DNA of 64,000 bases from Patescibacteria group bacterium (GTDB lineage: Bacteria > Patescibacteriota > Microgenomatia > UBA10105 > UBA927), in assembly GCA_035510735.1 (NCBI GenBank), contig DATKGN010000002.1, positions 3,275 through 67,274 on the forward strand, given 5' to 3'. Below are positions 4,417 through 64,000 of this stretch, piece after piece. Every line of letters starts with the position of its first letter. The stretch's first letter is position 1. Position numbers and translations under genes: made by a program. A model generated the notes under the pieces. That model was not told the origin of the DNA. It saw only the letters and a program-made list of their open reading frames with translations, and ran no database searches.

Positions 4417-5705
4417 AACGGAACATTCCCTATTTTGTTATCGTATGTATTTCCGTTTTTCTCGGCATTTTATTTTTTTCACCGAAGCAGGTTGTTCGTT
4501 CTGAGGGGCAATCACCGGCGATATGGCCAGTACGGTCGGTCGATACGATGAAAACATCCCGTGATATGGCGCGCGTGAAACTCAATGACCCGTCGTACGA
4601 TACATCGATTCAAAAAGAACTCACGCGTATAAAGGAACTCGGCGCCAACTACGTCACTATTGACACCCCATATGATGACGAGTTTTATCCATATCTCCTG
4701 CGGTGGGTCACCTTAGCGAGAAAAACCGGCCTGCATGTGTGGTTTCGCGGTAATTTCTCCGGGTGGGAAGGATGGTTTGACTATCCAAAAAATATTGATC
4801 CGCAGGAGCACCAACGGAGAACTGCTGAATTTATCGCCACCCATAGTGAGTTATTTCAGGACGGGGATGCGTTCGATCCGTGTCCTGAATGCGAAAATGC
4901 CGGGTTTTGGAAGCAACCCGAGGGAAATACCGCATTTAACGAGTTTATCATGAATCAACAGGTGGTTTTAAAAAATTCTTTCGATCAAATCCATAAGAAT
5001 GTTCATATAAACTGGACCTCTATTATCGGGGGCAGGGCAAAAGAGGTCTTAGATACTCAAGCGGTACGTGCCTTGGGAAATCTCATAACCATAGATCACT
5101 ATGTAAAAACTCCAAAGGACATGGAAACCTACATCAATTATTTTTCTCAATCGATGAAATCCGATGTACTTATTGGTGAATTCGGTGCGCCGATTCCGGA
5201 TATCAACGGCCCGATGACTGAGGACCAACAGGCAAACTTTGTTGATTCAATTTTCAATGTACTTTATGCAAAAAAACAATATGTCGAGGGAGTTAATTAT
5301 TTTGCGTTATCAAACGGTACGACAGAAATAATTGATGCTCTGGGAAATGTAACGAAAGCATATAACGTCATTAAGAAATATTATATTCCTGGACAAATTA
5401 CGGGTGACGTTACAAATACACTGGGTGATTTCGTATCGAACGAACCCGTTAAAACTATTGATGGAACAAATCAAACCGTTACGGATGCAAAAGGGAAATT
5501 TTCGCTCGTCGGGCCGGCCGTACCCACGACCATAGTCGTTGGCGGAAAGATATATCAGTCGCTGCAGTATGCGTTTGATCTCACGAATGGCGATACTATA
5601 CATAGTAACATCCAGTTATCACCAATAAAACCAAATAGAATCTACATTATCCGTTTATGGCTCCGTAGCTTTATTAATACGCTAAAACAAAGATTTACTT
5701 CGTAG
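4413..5705 (+). CDS. Secreted/anchored glycoside-hydrolase-like protein (TIM-barrel, clan GH-A-like) with C-terminal carboxypeptidase-regulatory-like beta-sandwich domain
   Basis: N-terminal signal/TM anchor. Shares the conserved core GANYVTIDTPYDDEF...HVWFRGNFSGWEGWF...LIGEFGAPIPDINGPMTEDQQ with the paralog at 6247..7500. The GEFG/GEIG motif sits where the GH-A nucleophile Glu is expected. The C-terminus (ITGDVTNTLGDFV...TDAKGKFSL) looks like a CarboxypepD_reg domain. Start overlaps the upstream gene by 4 nt. Confidence 0.4.
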   Translation: MKRNIPYFVIVCISVFLGILFFSPKQVVRSEGQSPAIWPVRSVDTMKTSRDMARVKLNDPSYDTSIQKELTRIKELGANYVTIDTPYDDEFYPYLLRWVTLARKTGLHVWFRGNFSGWEGWFDYPKNIDPQEHQRRTAEFIATHSELFQDGDAFDPCPECENAGFWKQPEGNTAFNEFIMNQQVVLKNSFDQIHKNVHINWTSIIGGRAKEVLDTQAVRALGNLITIDHYVKTPKDMETYINYFSQSMKSDVLIGEFGAPIPDINGPMTEDQQANFVDSIFNVLYAKKQYVEGVNYFALSNGTTEIIDALGNVTKAYNVIKKYYIPGQITGDVTNTLGDFVSNEPVKTIDGTNQTVTDAKGKFSLVGPAVPTTIVVGGKIYQSLQYAFDLTNGDTIHSNIQLSPIKPNRIYIIRLWLRSFINTLKQRFTS

Positions 5706-6246: not shown

Positions 6247-7500
6247 ATGAAATTCAGACAATTTATCTTCATTGTTATCCTTTTGGTTCTCGGCCTGACC
6301 GCATACCGGTTTATGCAAAAGAAGGCGAATCCGATCACGGCGACTCAGACGGGGTGGTGGCAGATACAATCGATTGATACGATGAAGTACTCGCGGGACA
6401 TGGCGCAAGTAGGCCTCGAAGACCCGAAGTTTGATACGACGATTGACCAACAGTTGAAGGCGATCGCCATGACCGGTGCTAACTATGTGGCTGTGGGCAC
6501 GCCGTATGATGAAAAATTTATCCCCATGCTCACGCGGTGGGTGACGATCGCGCGGAAATATAATCTCCACGTCTGGTTCCGCGGCAACTTCGCCGGGTGG
6601 GAAGGCTGGTTTGATATGCCCAAAATCTCGCGTGAACAGCATCTGGCCATGTTAACGGAATTCCTCGCCCGGCACGGCGACCTGTTTGAAAACGGGGATT
6701 TATTTACACCATGTCCGGAGTGCGAAAACGGCGGGCCCGGCGACCCCCGTCAGACCGGAGACATCGAAGGATACCGGTTATTTCTCACGACCGAATACCG
6801 GATGTCAGAAGATTCCTTCAAACAGATGGGGAAGGATATAAAGATCTATGATTCCATGAACTATGACGTTGCAAGCCAGGTGATGGACCCTAGGACGACT
6901 CAAGCCCTGGGAGGAGTGGTCACCATAGACCATTACGTGGCGTCTCCTGACCAATTAGTGCATGATGTCCGCGCAATTGCCGATGCTTCGGGGGGCAGAG
7001 TTTTCTTAGGTGAAATCGGCGCGCCGATTCCCGACATTAACGGCGATATGAGCGATGCCCAGCAGGCCGAGTGGCTCCGAAGCGCCTTATCCAAATTAAG
7101 CAGCATGCCGCAGGTTATCGGCATCAATTATTGGGTCAATGTCGGCGGATCGACGGCGATTTGGGATGACCAGGTAAATCCAAAGCCCGCGGTTCTCGCG
7201 ATAACAACATTTTTCTCTCCTGAAATAATTACGGGCTCAGTAAAAGATCAGTATAACAATCTTATAGCAAATGCCAAAGTGCGCACGATGGAAAAGGCGG
7301 TATACACCGACACCTCAGGCAACTTCTCCATACCGGCCCTGCCGACTGATACACTTCTCTACATCTCAGCAGATAAATATGTTGATAAATCAATCAAAAT
7401 ATACGATAACACAAAAAATATGGACATCGTTATCGAGCGTCCGACGCAGTCTTCCGTCCAATCATTTTTGGATTACCTCCGAGGTCTTCTTTCCCGATAG
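6247..7500 (+). CDS. Secreted glycoside-hydrolase-like protein, paralog of 4413..5705, with C-terminal CarboxypepD_reg-like domain
   Basis: Signal anchor followed by GANYVAVGTPYDEKF...HVWFRGNFAGWEGWF...LGEIGAPIPDINGDMSDAQQ. The C-terminus (ITGSVKDQYNNLIANAKVRTMEKAVYTDTSGNFSIPALPTDTLLYISADKY) fits carboxypeptidase-regulatory-like domains. Confidence 0.4.
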   Translation: MKFRQFIFIVILLVLGLTAYRFMQKKANPITATQTGWWQIQSIDTMKYSRDMAQVGLEDPKFDTTIDQQLKAIAMTGANYVAVGTPYDEKFIPMLTRWVTIARKYNLHVWFRGNFAGWEGWFDMPKISREQHLAMLTEFLARHGDLFENGDLFTPCPECENGGPGDPRQTGDIEGYRLFLTTEYRMSEDSFKQMGKDIKIYDSMNYDVASQVMDPRTTQALGGVVTIDHYVASPDQLVHDVRAIADASGGRVFLGEIGAPIPDINGDMSDAQQAEWLRSALSKLSSMPQVIGINYWVNVGGSTAIWDDQVNPKPAVLAITTFFSPEIITGSVKDQYNNLIANAKVRTMEKAVYTDTSGNFSIPALPTDTLLYISADKYVDKSIKIYDNTKNMDIVIERPTQSSVQSFLDYLRGLLSR

Positions 7501-37078: not shown

Positions 37079-37627
37079 TTAAAAAACAGCAAAAAATGTA
37101 ACGGACGCCAGTATACCGCCGTTCGCCTGAATCTGTATTGATGTCAATTGAGGATTTACCAAATGATTGGATTGCGTCTGGGTGATTATCGCATTGACCA
37201 CTTGGAGGAGCGCCTCAAAAGAAGAAACGTTCATTGAAAGTGAAATTTTATCCTGATCATCTACTACGATATCCGTCAGTGACCCAGCTGGTACAAATAT
37301 ATTTATTCTATCAAGCAGGTCAGCCCACGGCCGTTGATTTTGCATGGCGTTCCCGACAATGAACGTACGATTCTTAATAGAGACGAAAAGACCTTCCTTT
37401 TTTGCATCGCCCGTAACTTCATTAATCAAATTCCGTTTTGAGGACTGTAAATTCTGTTTACTTTGATTAAAGAGGATATAGATTACTGCACAGACAAGAC
37501 TCACGCATAGAAATCCGACAACGCCGACATATCCCGTTCGTCTGAGACTGGTTTCGATGGCATCGAGCTGTGGAGACGTACCGGTCTTTGTTCGTATAAG
37601 GTTTATACTACTTTGAAGTGGTGCCAT
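37079..37627 (-). CDS. pilN: Type IV pilus assembly protein PilN
   Basis: N-terminal INLI motif, a single TM helix and its position after pilM. Confidence 0.7.
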   Translation of the reverse strand: MAPLQSSINLIRTKTGTSPQLDAIETSLRRTGYVGVVGFLCVSLVCAVIYILFNQSKQNLQSSKRNLINEVTGDAKKEGLFVSIKNRTFIVGNAMQNQRPWADLLDRINIFVPAGSLTDIVVDDQDKISLSMNVSSFEALLQVVNAIITQTQSNHLVNPQLTSIQIQANGGILASVTFFAVF

Positions 37628-59597: not shown

Positions 59598-62117
59598 ATG
59601 GATATTGGAAAAATTAACCAATCGGAAGTCGTCGCTGAGATGCAGAAGTCGTATCTCGACTATGCTATGAGCGTCATCGTCGCGAGGGCGCTTCCCGACG
59701 TACGAGACGGCATGAAACCCGTCCACAGGCGCATCCTCTTCGCGATGCACCAGATGGGACTTCATCACACGTCAAAGTATAAAAAAAGTGCATCTGTTGT
59801 CGGAGAAGTGTTGGGTAAATACCATCCGCACGGTGACGCGCCGGTCTACGAGGCATTGGTCCGGCTTGCACAGGAATTTTCCATGCGCTATCGGCTCGTT
59901 GACGGCCAGGGAAACTACGGTTCCATTGACGGCGATCCTCCGGCAGCTATGCGGTACACCGAATGTCGGCTCGCAAGTATTGCCGATGAAATGCTTTTTG
60001 ACATCGAAAAGGAAACCGTCGACTTTATCCCGAACTTTGACGGCGCCATCGATGAGCCGGTCTATCTCCCAGCAAAGCTCCCAAATCTATTATTAATGGG
60101 CAGCGAGGGTATCGCCGTCGGTATGGCCACAAAAATTCCGCCGCATAACCTTTCCGAAGTCGTGGACGCCATCGTCCACCTTATCGCCAAAACAAAAGTT
60201 GAAAAACCGCAGAATTCGGCGAAAGCCGGCGATACAGCGTATGGAAAACCGGTCATGTCGTTTGATATCACGGTCGATGAGCTCATGGAACACATCCAGG
60301 GACCGGATTTCCCGACCGGCGGCGCGATCTATGACATCAATGAAATTAAAGCAGCCTACACGACCGGTCGCGGTAAAATCGTCATGCGGGGGAAGGCTGA
60401 AATCGAAGACATCGGAAACGGCAAGTCAGCAATAGCTATCACGGAGCTTCCGTATCAGGTCAATAAAGCGGTGTTGGTCGCACGAATCGCAGACCTTGTC
60501 CATGAGAAAAAACTCGAAGGCATATCAGACCTCCGGGATGAATCAGACCGCCGCGGTATCCGCGTGTACATAGAGCTTAAGCGCGACGCACGGCCAAAAC
60601 AAGTACTTAACAACCTATTTAAATATACGGCGCTCCAGACGACCTTCCCCGTCAATACTGTGGCACTTGTCGACAACACACCGCAAACCTGCTCCCTTAA
60701 ATTAATTTTGGAAGAATATGTGAAACATCGCCATGATGTCATACGGCGCCGGAGTGAATTTGAACTGCGTGAAGCCAAGGCCCGCGAACATATTCTTGAG
60801 GGATTAAAAATCGCTGTTGATCACATTGATGAAGTCATCGCCATTATCAAAAAGAGCAAAGATGCCGACGAAGCCAAACAGAAATTGATGAAGCGGTTCG
60901 GTCTCTCCGACATCCAGACCACCGCCATTTTGGACATGCAGCTCCGGAAGCTCGCAGCCCTTGAGCGCCAGAAAATCGAGGACGAACTTGCCATGATCCG
61001 CGAAACTATTGCGTACCTTAACGACCTTCTTTCCCACCCCGAAAAAATTCTCAAAGTCATAAAAGATGAAATCCTAAAGCTCAAAGAAAAATACGGCGAT
61101 GTCAGGAAAACCAAAGTCTATAAAAGCAAAGTCGGCGAATTCAGCGAGGAACAGCTTATTGCAAACGAAGATGTCATCATCACCATGAGCGAATCCGGCT
61201 ACATCAAGCGCCTTCCGCGAACGACATTTAAGATGCAGGAGCGGGGCGGTAAAGGCGTCATCGGCATGACGACCAAGGAAGAGGATACGATCGACAAGAT
61301 CATTACGGCGCAGACGCACGATAACATGCTCTTCATTACGGACAAGGGCCGGGTTTATCAGGTCCGCGTCTGGGATATCCCGGAGACATCGCGCCAGGCC
61401 AAGGGCCAGGCGGTTATAAACCTCATCAACACTGAATCAGGTGAGAAAGTGACCTCCGTATTAGCCTACACGCTCAAACGGCAGGAACAGAAGGAAAAGG
61501 GCGTCGGATTTATCATCATGGCCACGAAAAACGGGACGATCAAGAAATCCAAACTGTCAGAATATGAGAATATCAGACGAAGTGGCATCGTCGCTATCAA
61601 ACTGGAAAAGGGTGATGAGCTTGCGTGGGCAAAACTCACAAGCGGCGCAGATGACCTCCTTATCGTTTCGCATGACGGCAAGTCGATAAGATTCTCCGAG
61701 TCCGAGGTTCGTCCGACAGCGCGTGACACGATGGGCGTACGGGGAATACTCCTCAAGAGCCCGGACTTTGTCGTGAGCGTTGACGTCATAAATGATGAAA
61801 CCAGAAAAGGCGATTTCCTGACGGTCATGGAGAAGGGGATCGGCAAAAAAACGGCAATCAAGGACTTCCCGAAGCAGAAGCGGGGCGGTCAGGGCGTGAA
61901 AGTCGCGGAGGTGAAGGATAAGACGGGTAAAGTCGTCGTTTCCCAAATTGTCCCTGCGGAAACCGATAGTGTCATCCTCACGTCTATCAAAGGCCAGGTC
62001 GTGAAGCTTCCGATTAATTCAGTGCCGCGTCTCGGCCGGGCCACAAGCGGCGTCATCCTCATGCGCTTCGCCGATAAGGGCGACACTATTGCCGCCGCCA
62101 CCTGCCTCACAAAATAA
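59598..62117 (+). CDS. gyrA: DNA gyrase subunit A
   Basis: Active-site Tyr region, the QRDR-like motif ([11 protein letters not shown]) and a C-terminal beta-pinwheel. Confidence 0.95.
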
Positions 62118-62128
62118 TCCGCTTATCT

Positions 62129-62797
62129 ATGACGTATATAGAGCAGCTGGAAAAAATGCCCATAATCAAAAAAGAGTTGGAAGATCCGGGGGGTGAGTAT
62201 TCCAGATTAGTGAATGAGGTGAAACAAATGGAGATTCACGAGCAATACCTCGCGGGAAACATAATAGTGATGGGTCAAGATAATGCGTTTCCTGAACGGT
62301 GTCTGTTATGTACCCCCGAAACGCGTTTTCAAAAACTGAACGAGGATGTTTCGAAACTCGTCTACGTTAGTCCCAGATCATCTAACTATAGCCCGGAGCC
62401 ATTTCTGCAACCAAAAACGCATATAGAAAACTTCCCTTCGCAAGAAGAATTGAAGGCGCTACCACACGGAGGAGTCGCATATTACTCGCTCGATACTATC
62501 GAATATGTCTTTAGAAACTACCTTCCTTCATCTTCTTTCAACGCCATTTTTGAATTCCAGTCCAAGGAAATCGGTGAACAGCTACGCACCGGCGTACTAG
62601 AATTCTCGTTGTGTTCCAAACTGAAACCCGGCGGAGTGTTTGTCGGCTCAGGTCACATGGACGAAAACTTGTATCGAGATCTGCAACAAAAAGGTATTCA
62701 AGGCATGGATGTTATTCAAGCCACACATTTGTCGGCTCTCTTCGGACACCCATTTCCCAACTACGTGGGAGTAATCTTACAAAAACCCCTCCAATAA
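62129..62797 (+). CDS. Hypothetical protein (paralog A of a duplicated gene pair)
   Basis: 222 aa with no recognisable family. Homologous along its whole length to the frameshifted gene 62917..63637 (IIVMGQDNAFPERCLLC, GGVAYYSL, GVFVGSGH). Confidence 0.55.
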   Translation: MTYIEQLEKMPIIKKELEDPGGEYSRLVNEVKQMEIHEQYLAGNIIVMGQDNAFPERCLLCTPETRFQKLNEDVSKLVYVSPRSSNYSPEPFLQPKTHIENFPSQEELKALPHGGVAYYSLDTIEYVFRNYLPSSSFNAIFEFQSKEIGEQLRTGVLEFSLCSKLKPGGVFVGSGHMDENLYRDLQQKGIQGMDVIQATHLSALFGHPFPNYVGVILQKPLQ

Positions 62798-62862
62798 CCG
62801 GCGGCGCCGTCCTCATGCACTTCGGCGATAAAGGATATACGATAGCCGCAGGACTTGCCTCA
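62794..62862 (+). repeat. Degenerate duplicate of the gyrA 3' end (~70 nt, ~75% identical to 62045-62117)
   Basis: Reads ITGGAVLMHFGDKGYTIAAGLAS against gyrA C-terminal [24 protein letters not shown], and keeps a shifted ...ctcaccaaataa ending. Confidence 0.55.
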
Positions 62863-62916
62863 CCAAATAACCCCGTAAGTTAGTCTAGGCTCACACAAAG
62901 GAAGAAAAGACACTCT

Positions 62917-63637
62917 TTGATGGATAATTCATTCAAAACCTATAATAATGATATGATCTTCTCCATGTCCATAAAACAGGAGGGTCAAACATACGTTCAG
63001 CAACTTTACGATAAGATTCAAGATGAGCCATACAAGGAGCAGTTCACGGATTTTTTAGGAACGATCGCCCGATTGAATATTGAGCCGTCACATATTCAGG
63101 GACCAATCGCCGTTATCGGTCAAGCACAATTTTTCCCGGAACGATCACTTCTGTGTTATGACGACAACTATGAAAACCTCAAACCTGAAATATCGTTTCT
63201 TGCATGTATAGATAGTTCATTTTTCAGCAACCCTGAACGCTCGCTGAACACACAAGTAACCATTCACCCAAATAGCAAAAAAAATTGAGTCTCTTCCTTA
63301 TGGGTCAGTAGCATATTACTCTTGGGGGGCAAAATATATTTTTGATACAGACCCCGGTATTGCTGATAATTCTTTTCATACTATTACGGCATTCCAAATA
63401 CAAAACCTTGGAGAACAGTTGGAAAACGGTTTACTAGAATCAATTAGTAGGGTATTACAATCAAACGGAGTCTTTATTGGATCGGGCGGGACACATGGGG
63501 ATTATTATCAGCGTATACAGCAACAAAATAACTTTCCCCTTCATTTTACTCAAATAGTTAATCTTCCGAATCCCGGCTATTCAGGCTATCTGTTTAACGA
63601 ACATATCGGAATAATAATGCAAAAAGGTAAAGAATAA
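62917..63637 (+). pseudogene. Frameshifted paralog of 62129..62797 (split into ORFs 62917..63288 and 63419..63637; shift inside the A8 tract at 63277-63284)
   Basis: The frame-1 ORF ends HPNSKKN*. Frame 2 continues open from 63260 as ...KKIESLPYGSVAYYSWGAKYIFDTDPGIADNSFHTITAFQIQNLGEQLENGLLESISRVLQSNGVFIGSGG..., colinear with paralog A (PHGGVAYYSL...IGEQLRTGVLEFSL...GGVFVGSGH). Confidence 0.6.
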
Positions 63638-63664
63638 CGGAGAGCCTCTATTGTATACTAGTGA

Positions 63665-64000
63665 TATGCGCATCGACGGAAAAGCACTTTCAGAGACCAT
63701 CATTACAAAGCTGACGGATACGGTAGCCAGGATAAAGAGCACCGGAGTAACGCCAACACTTGCGGTCATCCTTGTTGGGAATGATGAGGGGTCTGTTTCC
63801 TATATCCGCCAAAAGCAGAAGGCGGCCGAGAGAATAGGCGCCAAAGTGATCTTTGATCAGATGGAAAAAAGTACGACACCGGAAATTCTCGCTTCAGCGG
63901 TCGCCCACTATAATAATGACACGTCGGTTCACGGGCTTATCGTCCAGCGGCCGGTGCCCGTCGCGGGAGTAGGGGACATCCTTAATTCTGTAGCACCCGC
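63665..64000 (+). CDS. folD: Bifunctional methylenetetrahydrofolate dehydrogenase/cyclohydrolase, N-terminal part (runs off window end)
   Basis: MRIDGKALSETIITKLTDTVARIKSTGVTPTLAVILVGNDEGSVSYIRQKQKAAERIGAKV... is the canonical FolD N-terminus. Confidence 0.85.

Follow-up and report, generated by a model that had tools for sequence, protein, structure and literature searches.

We analyze here the gyrA–folD region of a 64,000-nucleotide (nt) stretch of contig DATKGN010000002.1 (positions 3,275 to 67,274), henceforth the window, in which two homologous open reading frames (ORFs), ORF1 and ORF2, follow one another between the two conserved genes and are separated by a displaced copy of the gyrA 3' end. 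With the help of 80 loci fetched with the GyrA C-terminal domain, the window was placed in Candidatus Gottesmanbacteria, a lineage of the Patescibacteria or candidate phyla radiation (CPR). The labels L001 to L095 for loci and P0003 to P0008 for family members are our own numbering. The initial annotation of this DNA, made from the sequence alone, had read the region as a tandem segmental duplication of the gyrA 3' end plus a downstream gene, with the second copy frameshifted inside a run of eight adenines (A8). Its two-unit anatomy, a gyrA tail with a gene followed by a tail relic with a homologous gene, is reproduced by the ORF coordinates and the alignments; the origin that we favor for this anatomy is a different one.

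Organization of the locus

The region reads, in order and on the forward strand, gyrA, ORF1, the gyrA 3'-end copy, ORF2 in two frames, and folD. The gyrA gene (59598..62117) is a complete, functional gene of 839 amino acids (aa), and the identical gene in L090 carries the Pfam domains DNA_topoisoIV and DNA_gyraseA_C in precomputed annotation. Against its counterpart in a sister species (L005), it shows 99% aa identity, with an omega (dN/dS) of 0.011 and a dS of 0.88. Its last ~75 nt constitute the live tail (62043..62120), the first copy of a direct repeat recovered in the alignments as family D2/D9. A putative −10-like box, AATAAT (62113..62118), found in a consensus scan, overlaps the gyrA stop codon and lies 10 nt upstream of the ATG of ORF1. 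ORF1 itself (62129..62797; NCBI accession no. HUD18882.1) is intact and encodes a protein of 222 aa with a predicted class I methyltransferase fold. At its very end begins the displaced gyrA-tail relic (62797..62873), which in the alignments still reads TGGAVLMHFGDKGYTIAAxTCLTK*, with a 1-nt deletion.

The N-terminal part of ORF2 (62917..63288, frame 1) ends in ...NSKKN* at the TGA at 63286-63288; it is represented in NCBI by a 107-aa call (accession no. HUD18883.1), which, like that of ORF1, lies on a 225-kb contig of a metagenome-assembled genome. The C-terminal part (63285..63637, frame +1; the second open frame as called spans 63260..63637) is open as far as the stop codon at 63635-63637 and corresponds in alignments to the C-terminal halves of ORF1 and the homologues P0003 and P0004. 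The same consensus scan points to a TATAAT box at 62941..62946, upstream of the likely ORF2 starts. The 5' part of folD (63666..64000), which runs off the window, forms the right-hand conserved flank of this variable slot, and the identical folD gene in L087 matches the Pfam domain THF_DHG_CYH. A terminator scan of positions 61900 to 63750 found none, and an Rfam scan of the whole window gave no match. A TATAAT-like box also precedes folD (63654-63659), and similar boxes precede the homologous genes of L002 (~622-627), L093 (~610-615), L094, and L005 (~6585-6592) by 6 to 18 nt. Boxes so near the ATG suggest very short or absent 5' leaders and a promoter of its own for each gene of the slot.

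The frameshift in ORF2

The frame switch maps exactly onto the A8 run at 63277-63284 (CAAAAAAAAT), just where the initial annotation had put it, with a shift of +1 from the first frame to the second. Removal of one A, which leaves a run of seven (A7), yields a continuous 239-codon ORF from 62917 that reads ...NSKKIESLPYG... across the break, and the addition of two (A10) also restores the full ORF2. A single inserted A leads to stops; of the earlier statement that the insertion or the deletion of one A would restore the frame, only the deletion stands. The repaired ORF2 aligns collinearly with ORF1 through the break (30% identity; E of 1e-28). Because the homologues of ORF2 begin at the position of M17 of the frame started at 62917, and because genes called in databases at 111 and 107 aa fit starts at ATG 62953 and ATG 62965, the true start is probably one of these two and not TTG 62917.

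Three explanations had been offered for the break: decay of a redundant duplicate, a sequencing or assembly error, and phase variation. The exact truncated product of 122 aa is recorded on 10 contigs in public assemblies, and the six of these that were fetched (four from Logan samples, one from ENA, and one from JGI) all have A8 and are 99.9 to 100% identical to the window. An artefact might be suspected inasmuch as homopolymer indels are a common class of error and the lesion is the only one in an otherwise open gene, but recurrence of A8 in six contigs from six samples and three sources, the window itself not counted, refutes this option, to which we accord a negligible probability. Nor was any other gene found broken at a homopolymer: among the 147 homopolymers of at least 6 nt in the window, a broken gene was shown for A8 alone. 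The homopolymer screen flagged four other sites at which a 1-nt edit merges long ORFs (4473, 13335, 23642, and 37081-37096). Two of them, 23642(-23647) and 37081(-37096), were checked and rejected as frameshifts, being pairs of adjacent genes (144 and 435 aa, and 182 and 247 aa, respectively). The shift of frame at A8 is a real mutation and has become fixed in the clone that was sampled.

In the A7-repaired gene, the codons AGC AAA AAA ATT GAG (SKKIE) align with AGT GAA GAA ATT GCG (SEEIA) and ACT AAA ACG ATT CAG (TKTIQ) of the homologues. Since none of the aligned homologues has an A run at this position, the tract appears to be a lineage-specific A7, presumably the ancestral state, that slipped to A8, rather than a conserved recoding site. 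Both halves of ORF2 are free of further lesions, and its inactivation is therefore a recent event. ORF2 is most likely a recent and presumably nonfunctional pseudogene, in keeping with the first of the three explanations in so far as this sees the second copy as decaying.

Alternatively, ORF2 might still be expressed: phase variation could switch the gene at the A8 run, or slippage there, either transcriptional or +1 ribosomal, could give some full-length protein. A Lys-tRNA on AAA could re-pair perfectly one base forward in A8, upon which the next codons would read IESLPYG, as in the homologues; neither half contains a further stop; and slippage at runs of A has been documented in bacteria, where homopolymer-slippage pseudogenes, contingency loci, and, in reduced genomes, the rescue of poly(A) frameshifts by slippage have been reviewed (PMC5009743). 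ORF2 shares with these systems a one-base change in a coding poly(A) that breaks the frame, with some slippage permitted, but it differs from them in the lack of length polymorphism among the assemblies, in a tract that is not conserved, and in a run of 8 As, shorter than the 9 A/T described for efficient transcriptional slippage (PMC5009743). No stimulatory element was seen, and the repaired ORF2 (A7 with four alternative starts and A10 with one) has no exact match among ~15 billion proteins. Thus, the locus has the simple-sequence tract within a coding region that is typical of contingency genes but not the length polymorphism with ON and OFF alleles, and it lacks the shift-prone site conserved in homologues that is expected of a programmed frameshift. 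A8 stands in six of six fetched contigs, and neither the assemblies nor these proteins contained an A7 or A10 allele; the phase variation that had been proposed finds no support, and continued expression of ORF2 by any of these routes seems quite unlikely.

Another slippage-prone tract occurs elsewhere in the family: in P0003 and P0004, an A8 run immediately next to the stop codon (L001:3520-3527 and L002:1298-1305) specifies the terminal ...QKK*; its position at the 3' end of the gene makes it harmless there.

A rare family with a predicted methyltransferase fold

Neither ORF1 nor the repaired ORF2 matches any Pfam or PADLOC model, and their NCBIfam match is at chance level only. Word-indexed homologue searches returned two matches for each, and HMMER, run exhaustively against 1.8 billion representatives, delineated a family of 58 members, all about 200 to 240 aa in length; a metagenome scan with the family alignment retrieved no more than two contigs, which both belong to the L005 species. 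The initial annotation had suggested structure prediction of the intact paralog as a way to assign a function. An AlphaFold2 (AF2) model of ORF1, built from an alignment of 57 sequences, has a pLDDT of 91.8 and a pTM of 0.90, and its top 50 Protein Data Bank (PDB) matches in Foldseek are nearly all S-adenosylmethionine (SAM)-dependent methyltransferases (E of 1e-6 to 1e-5, probability of 1.00), one of the 50 being the related cyclase SpnF. The best structural matches are NodS (3ofj), NTM1 (7d8d), TrmI (5c1i), and YtqB/MnmM (4pon/8h0s), with TM-scores of only ~0.45 to 0.6. At the level of sequence, 15 of the 57 relatives show weak matches to Methyltransf_11/25 (best E of 5.5e-5, to Methyltransf_11), a PDB profile search gave a best E of 9e-4, and neither ORF1 nor ORF2 matches a curated methyltransferase model at threshold. 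On the basis of the model, we predict that ORF1 has the class I methyltransferase fold and represents a rare, uncharacterized family.

In the region of motif I, the family consensus is VLVxGxGxxFPER, where ORF1 reads IIVMGQDNAFPER and ORF2 reads IAVIGQAQFFPER; only the first Gly is kept, with GQD or GQA in place of GxG. The second Gly of GxG is lost in both window copies and in their close relatives. The FPER motif directly after motif I (ORF1 residues 53-57) is specific to the family, and Glu56 within it is invariant in the 57 sequences. ORF1 thus shares with the class I SAM-dependent methyltransferases a Rossmann-like fold predicted with high confidence and an LKPGG-type motif but departs from them in the GQD/GQA form of motif I seen in the window copies, in the family-specific FPER motif, and in scores below the Pfam and NCBIfam thresholds. 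Given the degenerate motif I in both window genes, ORF1 and ORF2 may or may not be catalytically competent. The omega of ORF1 against its L004 and L005 orthologues, ~0.2, argues that ORF1 is functional and under purifying selection.

The family is present outside the gyrA slot as well, since P0003, the closest homologue of ORF2 (54% by BLASTP; L001:2856-3530), and P0008 (L095:1208-1912) are not adjacent to gyrA and sit among neighbors that gave no Pfam matches.

Displaced gyrA ends in the gyrA–folD slot

The tail copy in the window (62797/62801..62873) matches the live tail (62043/62047..62120) at 78 to 80% DNA identity, with a local-alignment score of 32.5, where shuffled tails reached at most 11, and a blastn E of 1.8e-11; the degenerate copy of the gyrA 3' end that had been noticed in the initial annotation is, accordingly, real. 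Counted by codon, it differs from the live tail by eight synonymous and six nonsynonymous changes and one 1-nt deletion. It has no predicted structure and does not overlap a promoter-like box.

The synteny of gyrA and folD extends over about 45 gottesmanbacterial loci identified by tblastn, and the gap between the two genes, taken from the gyrA stop to the folD start in L005 to L084, ranges from 4 bp to 2.6 kb and is filled with unrelated genes (SIMPL-type, NUDIX, and many ORFs of unknown function). The slot thus behaves as a hot spot of gene flux between two essential genes. The SIMPL-type and NUDIX genes are confirmed, the former lying in the neighborhood of the window clone; other gap ORFs resemble, as judged by eye only, YerC/TrpR-type, cupin, peroxiredoxin, VIT-type, and histidine-phosphatase genes.

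A search with every gyrA tail against all downstream DNA (210 kb) found four relic sites, one each in the window, L002, L021, and L030; 188 kb of upstream DNA, searched as a control, contained none. The cargo enclosed between the complete gyrA and the relic differs from site to site. In L030 (4747-6132), it consists of an MntA/HepT pair, i.e., a nucleotidyltransferase and a HEPN RNase forming a toxin-antitoxin pair, plus a 100-aa ORF, followed by a 75-nt relic; in L021 (4735-5243), it is a NUDIX gene followed by a 30-nt relic; and in L002 (250-620), it is a 103-aa ORF followed by a 33-nt relic. Pfam searches of the small cargo ORFs gave no matches. The relics of the window and L030 start ~75 nt before the gyrA stop codon and that of L002 starts at −32, and that of L021 covers −46 to −17. 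Each relic has its best match in the gyrA tail of another lineage.

The L030 relic differs from its live tail by eight synonymous and two nonsynonymous changes and still encodes a near-perfect gyrA C terminus, and the L002 relic differs by five synonymous changes and no nonsynonymous one. Jointly, the two depart from the 40% synonymous share expected for neutral drift since an in situ duplication (P = 2.8e-4). Because the differences are mostly synonymous, most of the divergence of these two relics must have accumulated while they still served other lineages as functional gyrA ends. The relic of the window is older than they are, which fits its presence before the split of the window and L004, a locus that has the same junction between the ORF1 stop and the relic.

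Origin of the tandem arrangement

In a neighbor-joining tree with bootstrap, ORF2 groups with P0003 (support of 100) and then with P0004 and P0006 (86), and ORF1 groups with the ORF1 of L005 and with P0005 (96). Since they fall into separately supported clades, ORF1 and ORF2 belong to different branches of the family and are not sister paralogues. Their divergence is discordant with that of the relic: the two proteins share 30% identity, and the noncoding relic retains ~80% DNA identity to the live tail. The parts are therefore not of one age, as those of an in situ duplication would be; neither comparable divergence nor the closest relationship of the two genes to one another, which such a duplication entails, is seen.

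The initial annotation had also proposed asking whether orthologous loci hold one copy or two, and on this point the related loci diverge. In L093 and L094, gyrA and folD enclose one ORF2-type gene only, i.e., a single-copy order of gyrA, methyltransferase-fold gene, and folD. In L005, gyrA is followed, after 91 bp, by ORF1, a 286-aa ORF without Pfam matches, an ORF2-type gene, and folD; there is no relic, and a search of L005 for repeats of its own tail was negative. Its ORF2-type gene belongs to a different subclade, is 35 to 40% identical to the ORF2 of the window, and is not orthologous to it. L004 is separated from L005 by a dS of only 0.035 in ORF1 and yet carries the relic. L002 has the order gyrA, unrelated 103-aa ORF, 33-nt relic, and intact ORF2-type gene.

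L004 and L005 (4841-5600) part completely after the ...LQKP of ORF1, L004 continuing into the gyrA-tail relic and L005 into a different C terminus and the 286-aa ORF; this divergence reflects a very recent rearrangement. The spacers of L005 before ORF1 (4770-4782 and 4833-4846) and after it (5530-5552) contain strings resembling the gyrA end (GCTCACCAAAAG, ACCTGCtATAA, and ACAAAATAAataattcccgct), which may be microrelics of earlier events or mere chance.

These data allow an appraisal of the view that the gyrA tail and the methyltransferase-fold gene were anciently duplicated in situ, the relic having been kept similar by repeated gene conversion or by selection. The anatomy is exactly that which a tandem duplication gives, the mixed synonymous and nonsynonymous changes and the indel of the window relic are those of a drifting copy, and the sister species L005 also has an ORF1 type followed by an ORF2 type. 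However, ORF1 and ORF2 are not sisters, and the clade of ORF2 includes single-copy genes between gyrA and folD of other lineages; the second copy of L005 is in yet another subclade; relics occur elsewhere with unrelated cargo, and those of L030 and L002 bear mostly synonymous differences; and the window relic shows neither a predicted structure nor an overlap with the promoter-like box. We consider an in situ origin unlikely. "Tandem segmental duplication" is hence a misleading name for genes that are not sisters, with parts of discordant ages, when similar relics adjoin unrelated cargo elsewhere, and a more fitting description is that interlineage recombination at a hot spot has stacked two divergent gyrA-linked alleles.

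The gyrA 3' end as a candidate attachment site

Islands and prophages leave displaced 3'-end copies of their target genes, as attL and attR at the 3' ends of tRNA, tmRNA, and protein-coding genes. The slot resembles them in that its cargo is preceded by a complete gyrA and followed by a partial copy of the gyrA 3' end and in that the displaced copies of L030 and L002 still encode the gyrA-end peptide. This raises the possibility that the gyrA 3' end is an attachment site at which small, promoter-bearing cassettes without an integrase are inserted by a recombinase encoded elsewhere, each bringing a substitute gyrA end. Direct repeats of the target-gene 3' end indeed flank four unrelated cargoes at four loci, as in integrative elements; the repeats of the window and L030 start at almost the same gyrA codon, at about −75 nt; the relics of L030 and L002 encode an intact or nearly intact gyrA end; and each cassette gene has its own TATAAT-like box 6 to 18 nt upstream. 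On the other hand, no integrase or recombinase domain was found in or beside any cargo, the repeats differ in length (about 75, 75, 33, and 30 nt) and appear to share no identical core, and most occupied gyrA–folD gaps (~25 loci) have no relic. Unlike attL/attR islands, moreover, the integrase-less cargo amounts to only 0.3 to 1.3 kb. The attC imperfect hairpin of integron cassettes is likewise absent: a hairpin or attC-like structure in the tails and relics was rejected, with z-scores of −0.36 to +0.38 for single-stranded DNA folds against shuffled sequences.

We regard this scenario as rather improbable, and it is distinctly doubtful that the last ~75 nt of gyrA are a genuine att site for integrase-less cassettes (methyltransferase-like, MntA/HepT, and NUDIX) moved in trans. 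If they were, ORF1 and the relic would together be one cassette, and the ultrasmall genomes of Patescibacteria would possess an integron-like or IMEX-like system of accessory genes.

Proposed recombination between lineages

The reading that we prefer, with a probability of roughly 0.55, is that recombination between lineages, anchored on gyrA and folD, stacked two alleles and displaced a gyrA end and that ORF2 later died by the change from A7 to A8; both the mechanism and its direction are read from scars only. The slot would be a recombination hot spot with changing accessory genes, which in several lineages holds a single methyltransferase-fold gene. Two gyrA-linked versions, one of the ORF1 type and one of the ORF2 type, which by then were very divergent, would have been brought into tandem in an ancestor of the window organism. 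Unequal or illegitimate recombination between DNAs of different lineages would have done this, with the conserved flanks as anchors. One gyrA copy would have been joined, nonhomologously or out of register, ~75 nt short of its end, with one complete gyrA retained and the gyrA end of the other lineage left as a noncoding relic between the two genes. Afterwards, ORF1 would have stayed under purifying selection; in ORF2, lineage-specific Glu-to-Lys codon changes would have created the A7 tract, which then gained one A by replication slippage, inactivating the gene, with A8 becoming fixed in the sampled population.

Events of this kind have precedents in homology-facilitated illegitimate recombination (PMC3240628) and in transformation-triggered tandem duplication (Johnston et al. 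2013, PMC3784515). These routes share with our proposal a conserved anchor combined with a nonhomologous or alternatively paired join, and they can add foreign DNA and generate duplications without a dedicated recombinase; the window differs in that its two "copies" would have been highly diverged alleles of different lineages from the outset. To our knowledge, neither route has been shown in Patescibacteria. Type IV pilus-type machinery serves DNA uptake in other bacteria, and the window encodes genes of this type. The genes of the slot have a GC content below that of the flanks, and the first ~160 nt of folD (63666-63825 versus L005:7390-7550) are 72% identical between the window and L005, as against 86% further in. 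The divergent start of folD may be a trace of the right-hand crossover inside that gene or of weaker constraint there, a weak hint; together with the low GC of the slot genes, it is weakly consistent with interlineage exchange.

Several points weigh against interlineage recombination followed by loss of ORF2. The relics are short (30 to 75 nt), which goes along with noisy nearest-neighbor assignments; the 5' boundaries of the window and L030 relics fall at nearly the same gyrA codon and could point to a site-specific mechanism; and the eight synonymous and six nonsynonymous changes of the window relic do not by themselves reject an in situ origin. A sliding-window comparison of gyrA between the window and L005 gave a uniform identity of 85 to 91% and no recombination breakpoint inside the gene, which is expected if the event predates the split of the two and gives no positive support. 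As to the fate of ORF2, the A8 data come from assembled contigs, beneath which low-frequency A7 variants or slippage at the RNA level could persist, and all of these contigs represent approximately one clone from possibly related sampling sites, to which the term "fixed" refers.

Implications

Taken alone, the locus is an ordinary pseudogene beside a recombination scar, i.e., known biology in a poorly studied phylum. In the context of its relatives, it offers a worked example of how the reduced genomes of Patescibacteria turn over accessory genes at a fixed slot between the essential genes gyrA and folD, with the displaced gyrA ends as datable scars of exchange between lineages. It also illustrates that seeming tandem paralogues can be stacked alleles from different lineages, and it draws attention to a rare, uncharacterized family with a predicted methyltransferase fold that is tied to gyrA. 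If the boundaries of the relics should prove to be site specific, the slot would point to a CPR cassette system without an integrase of its own.

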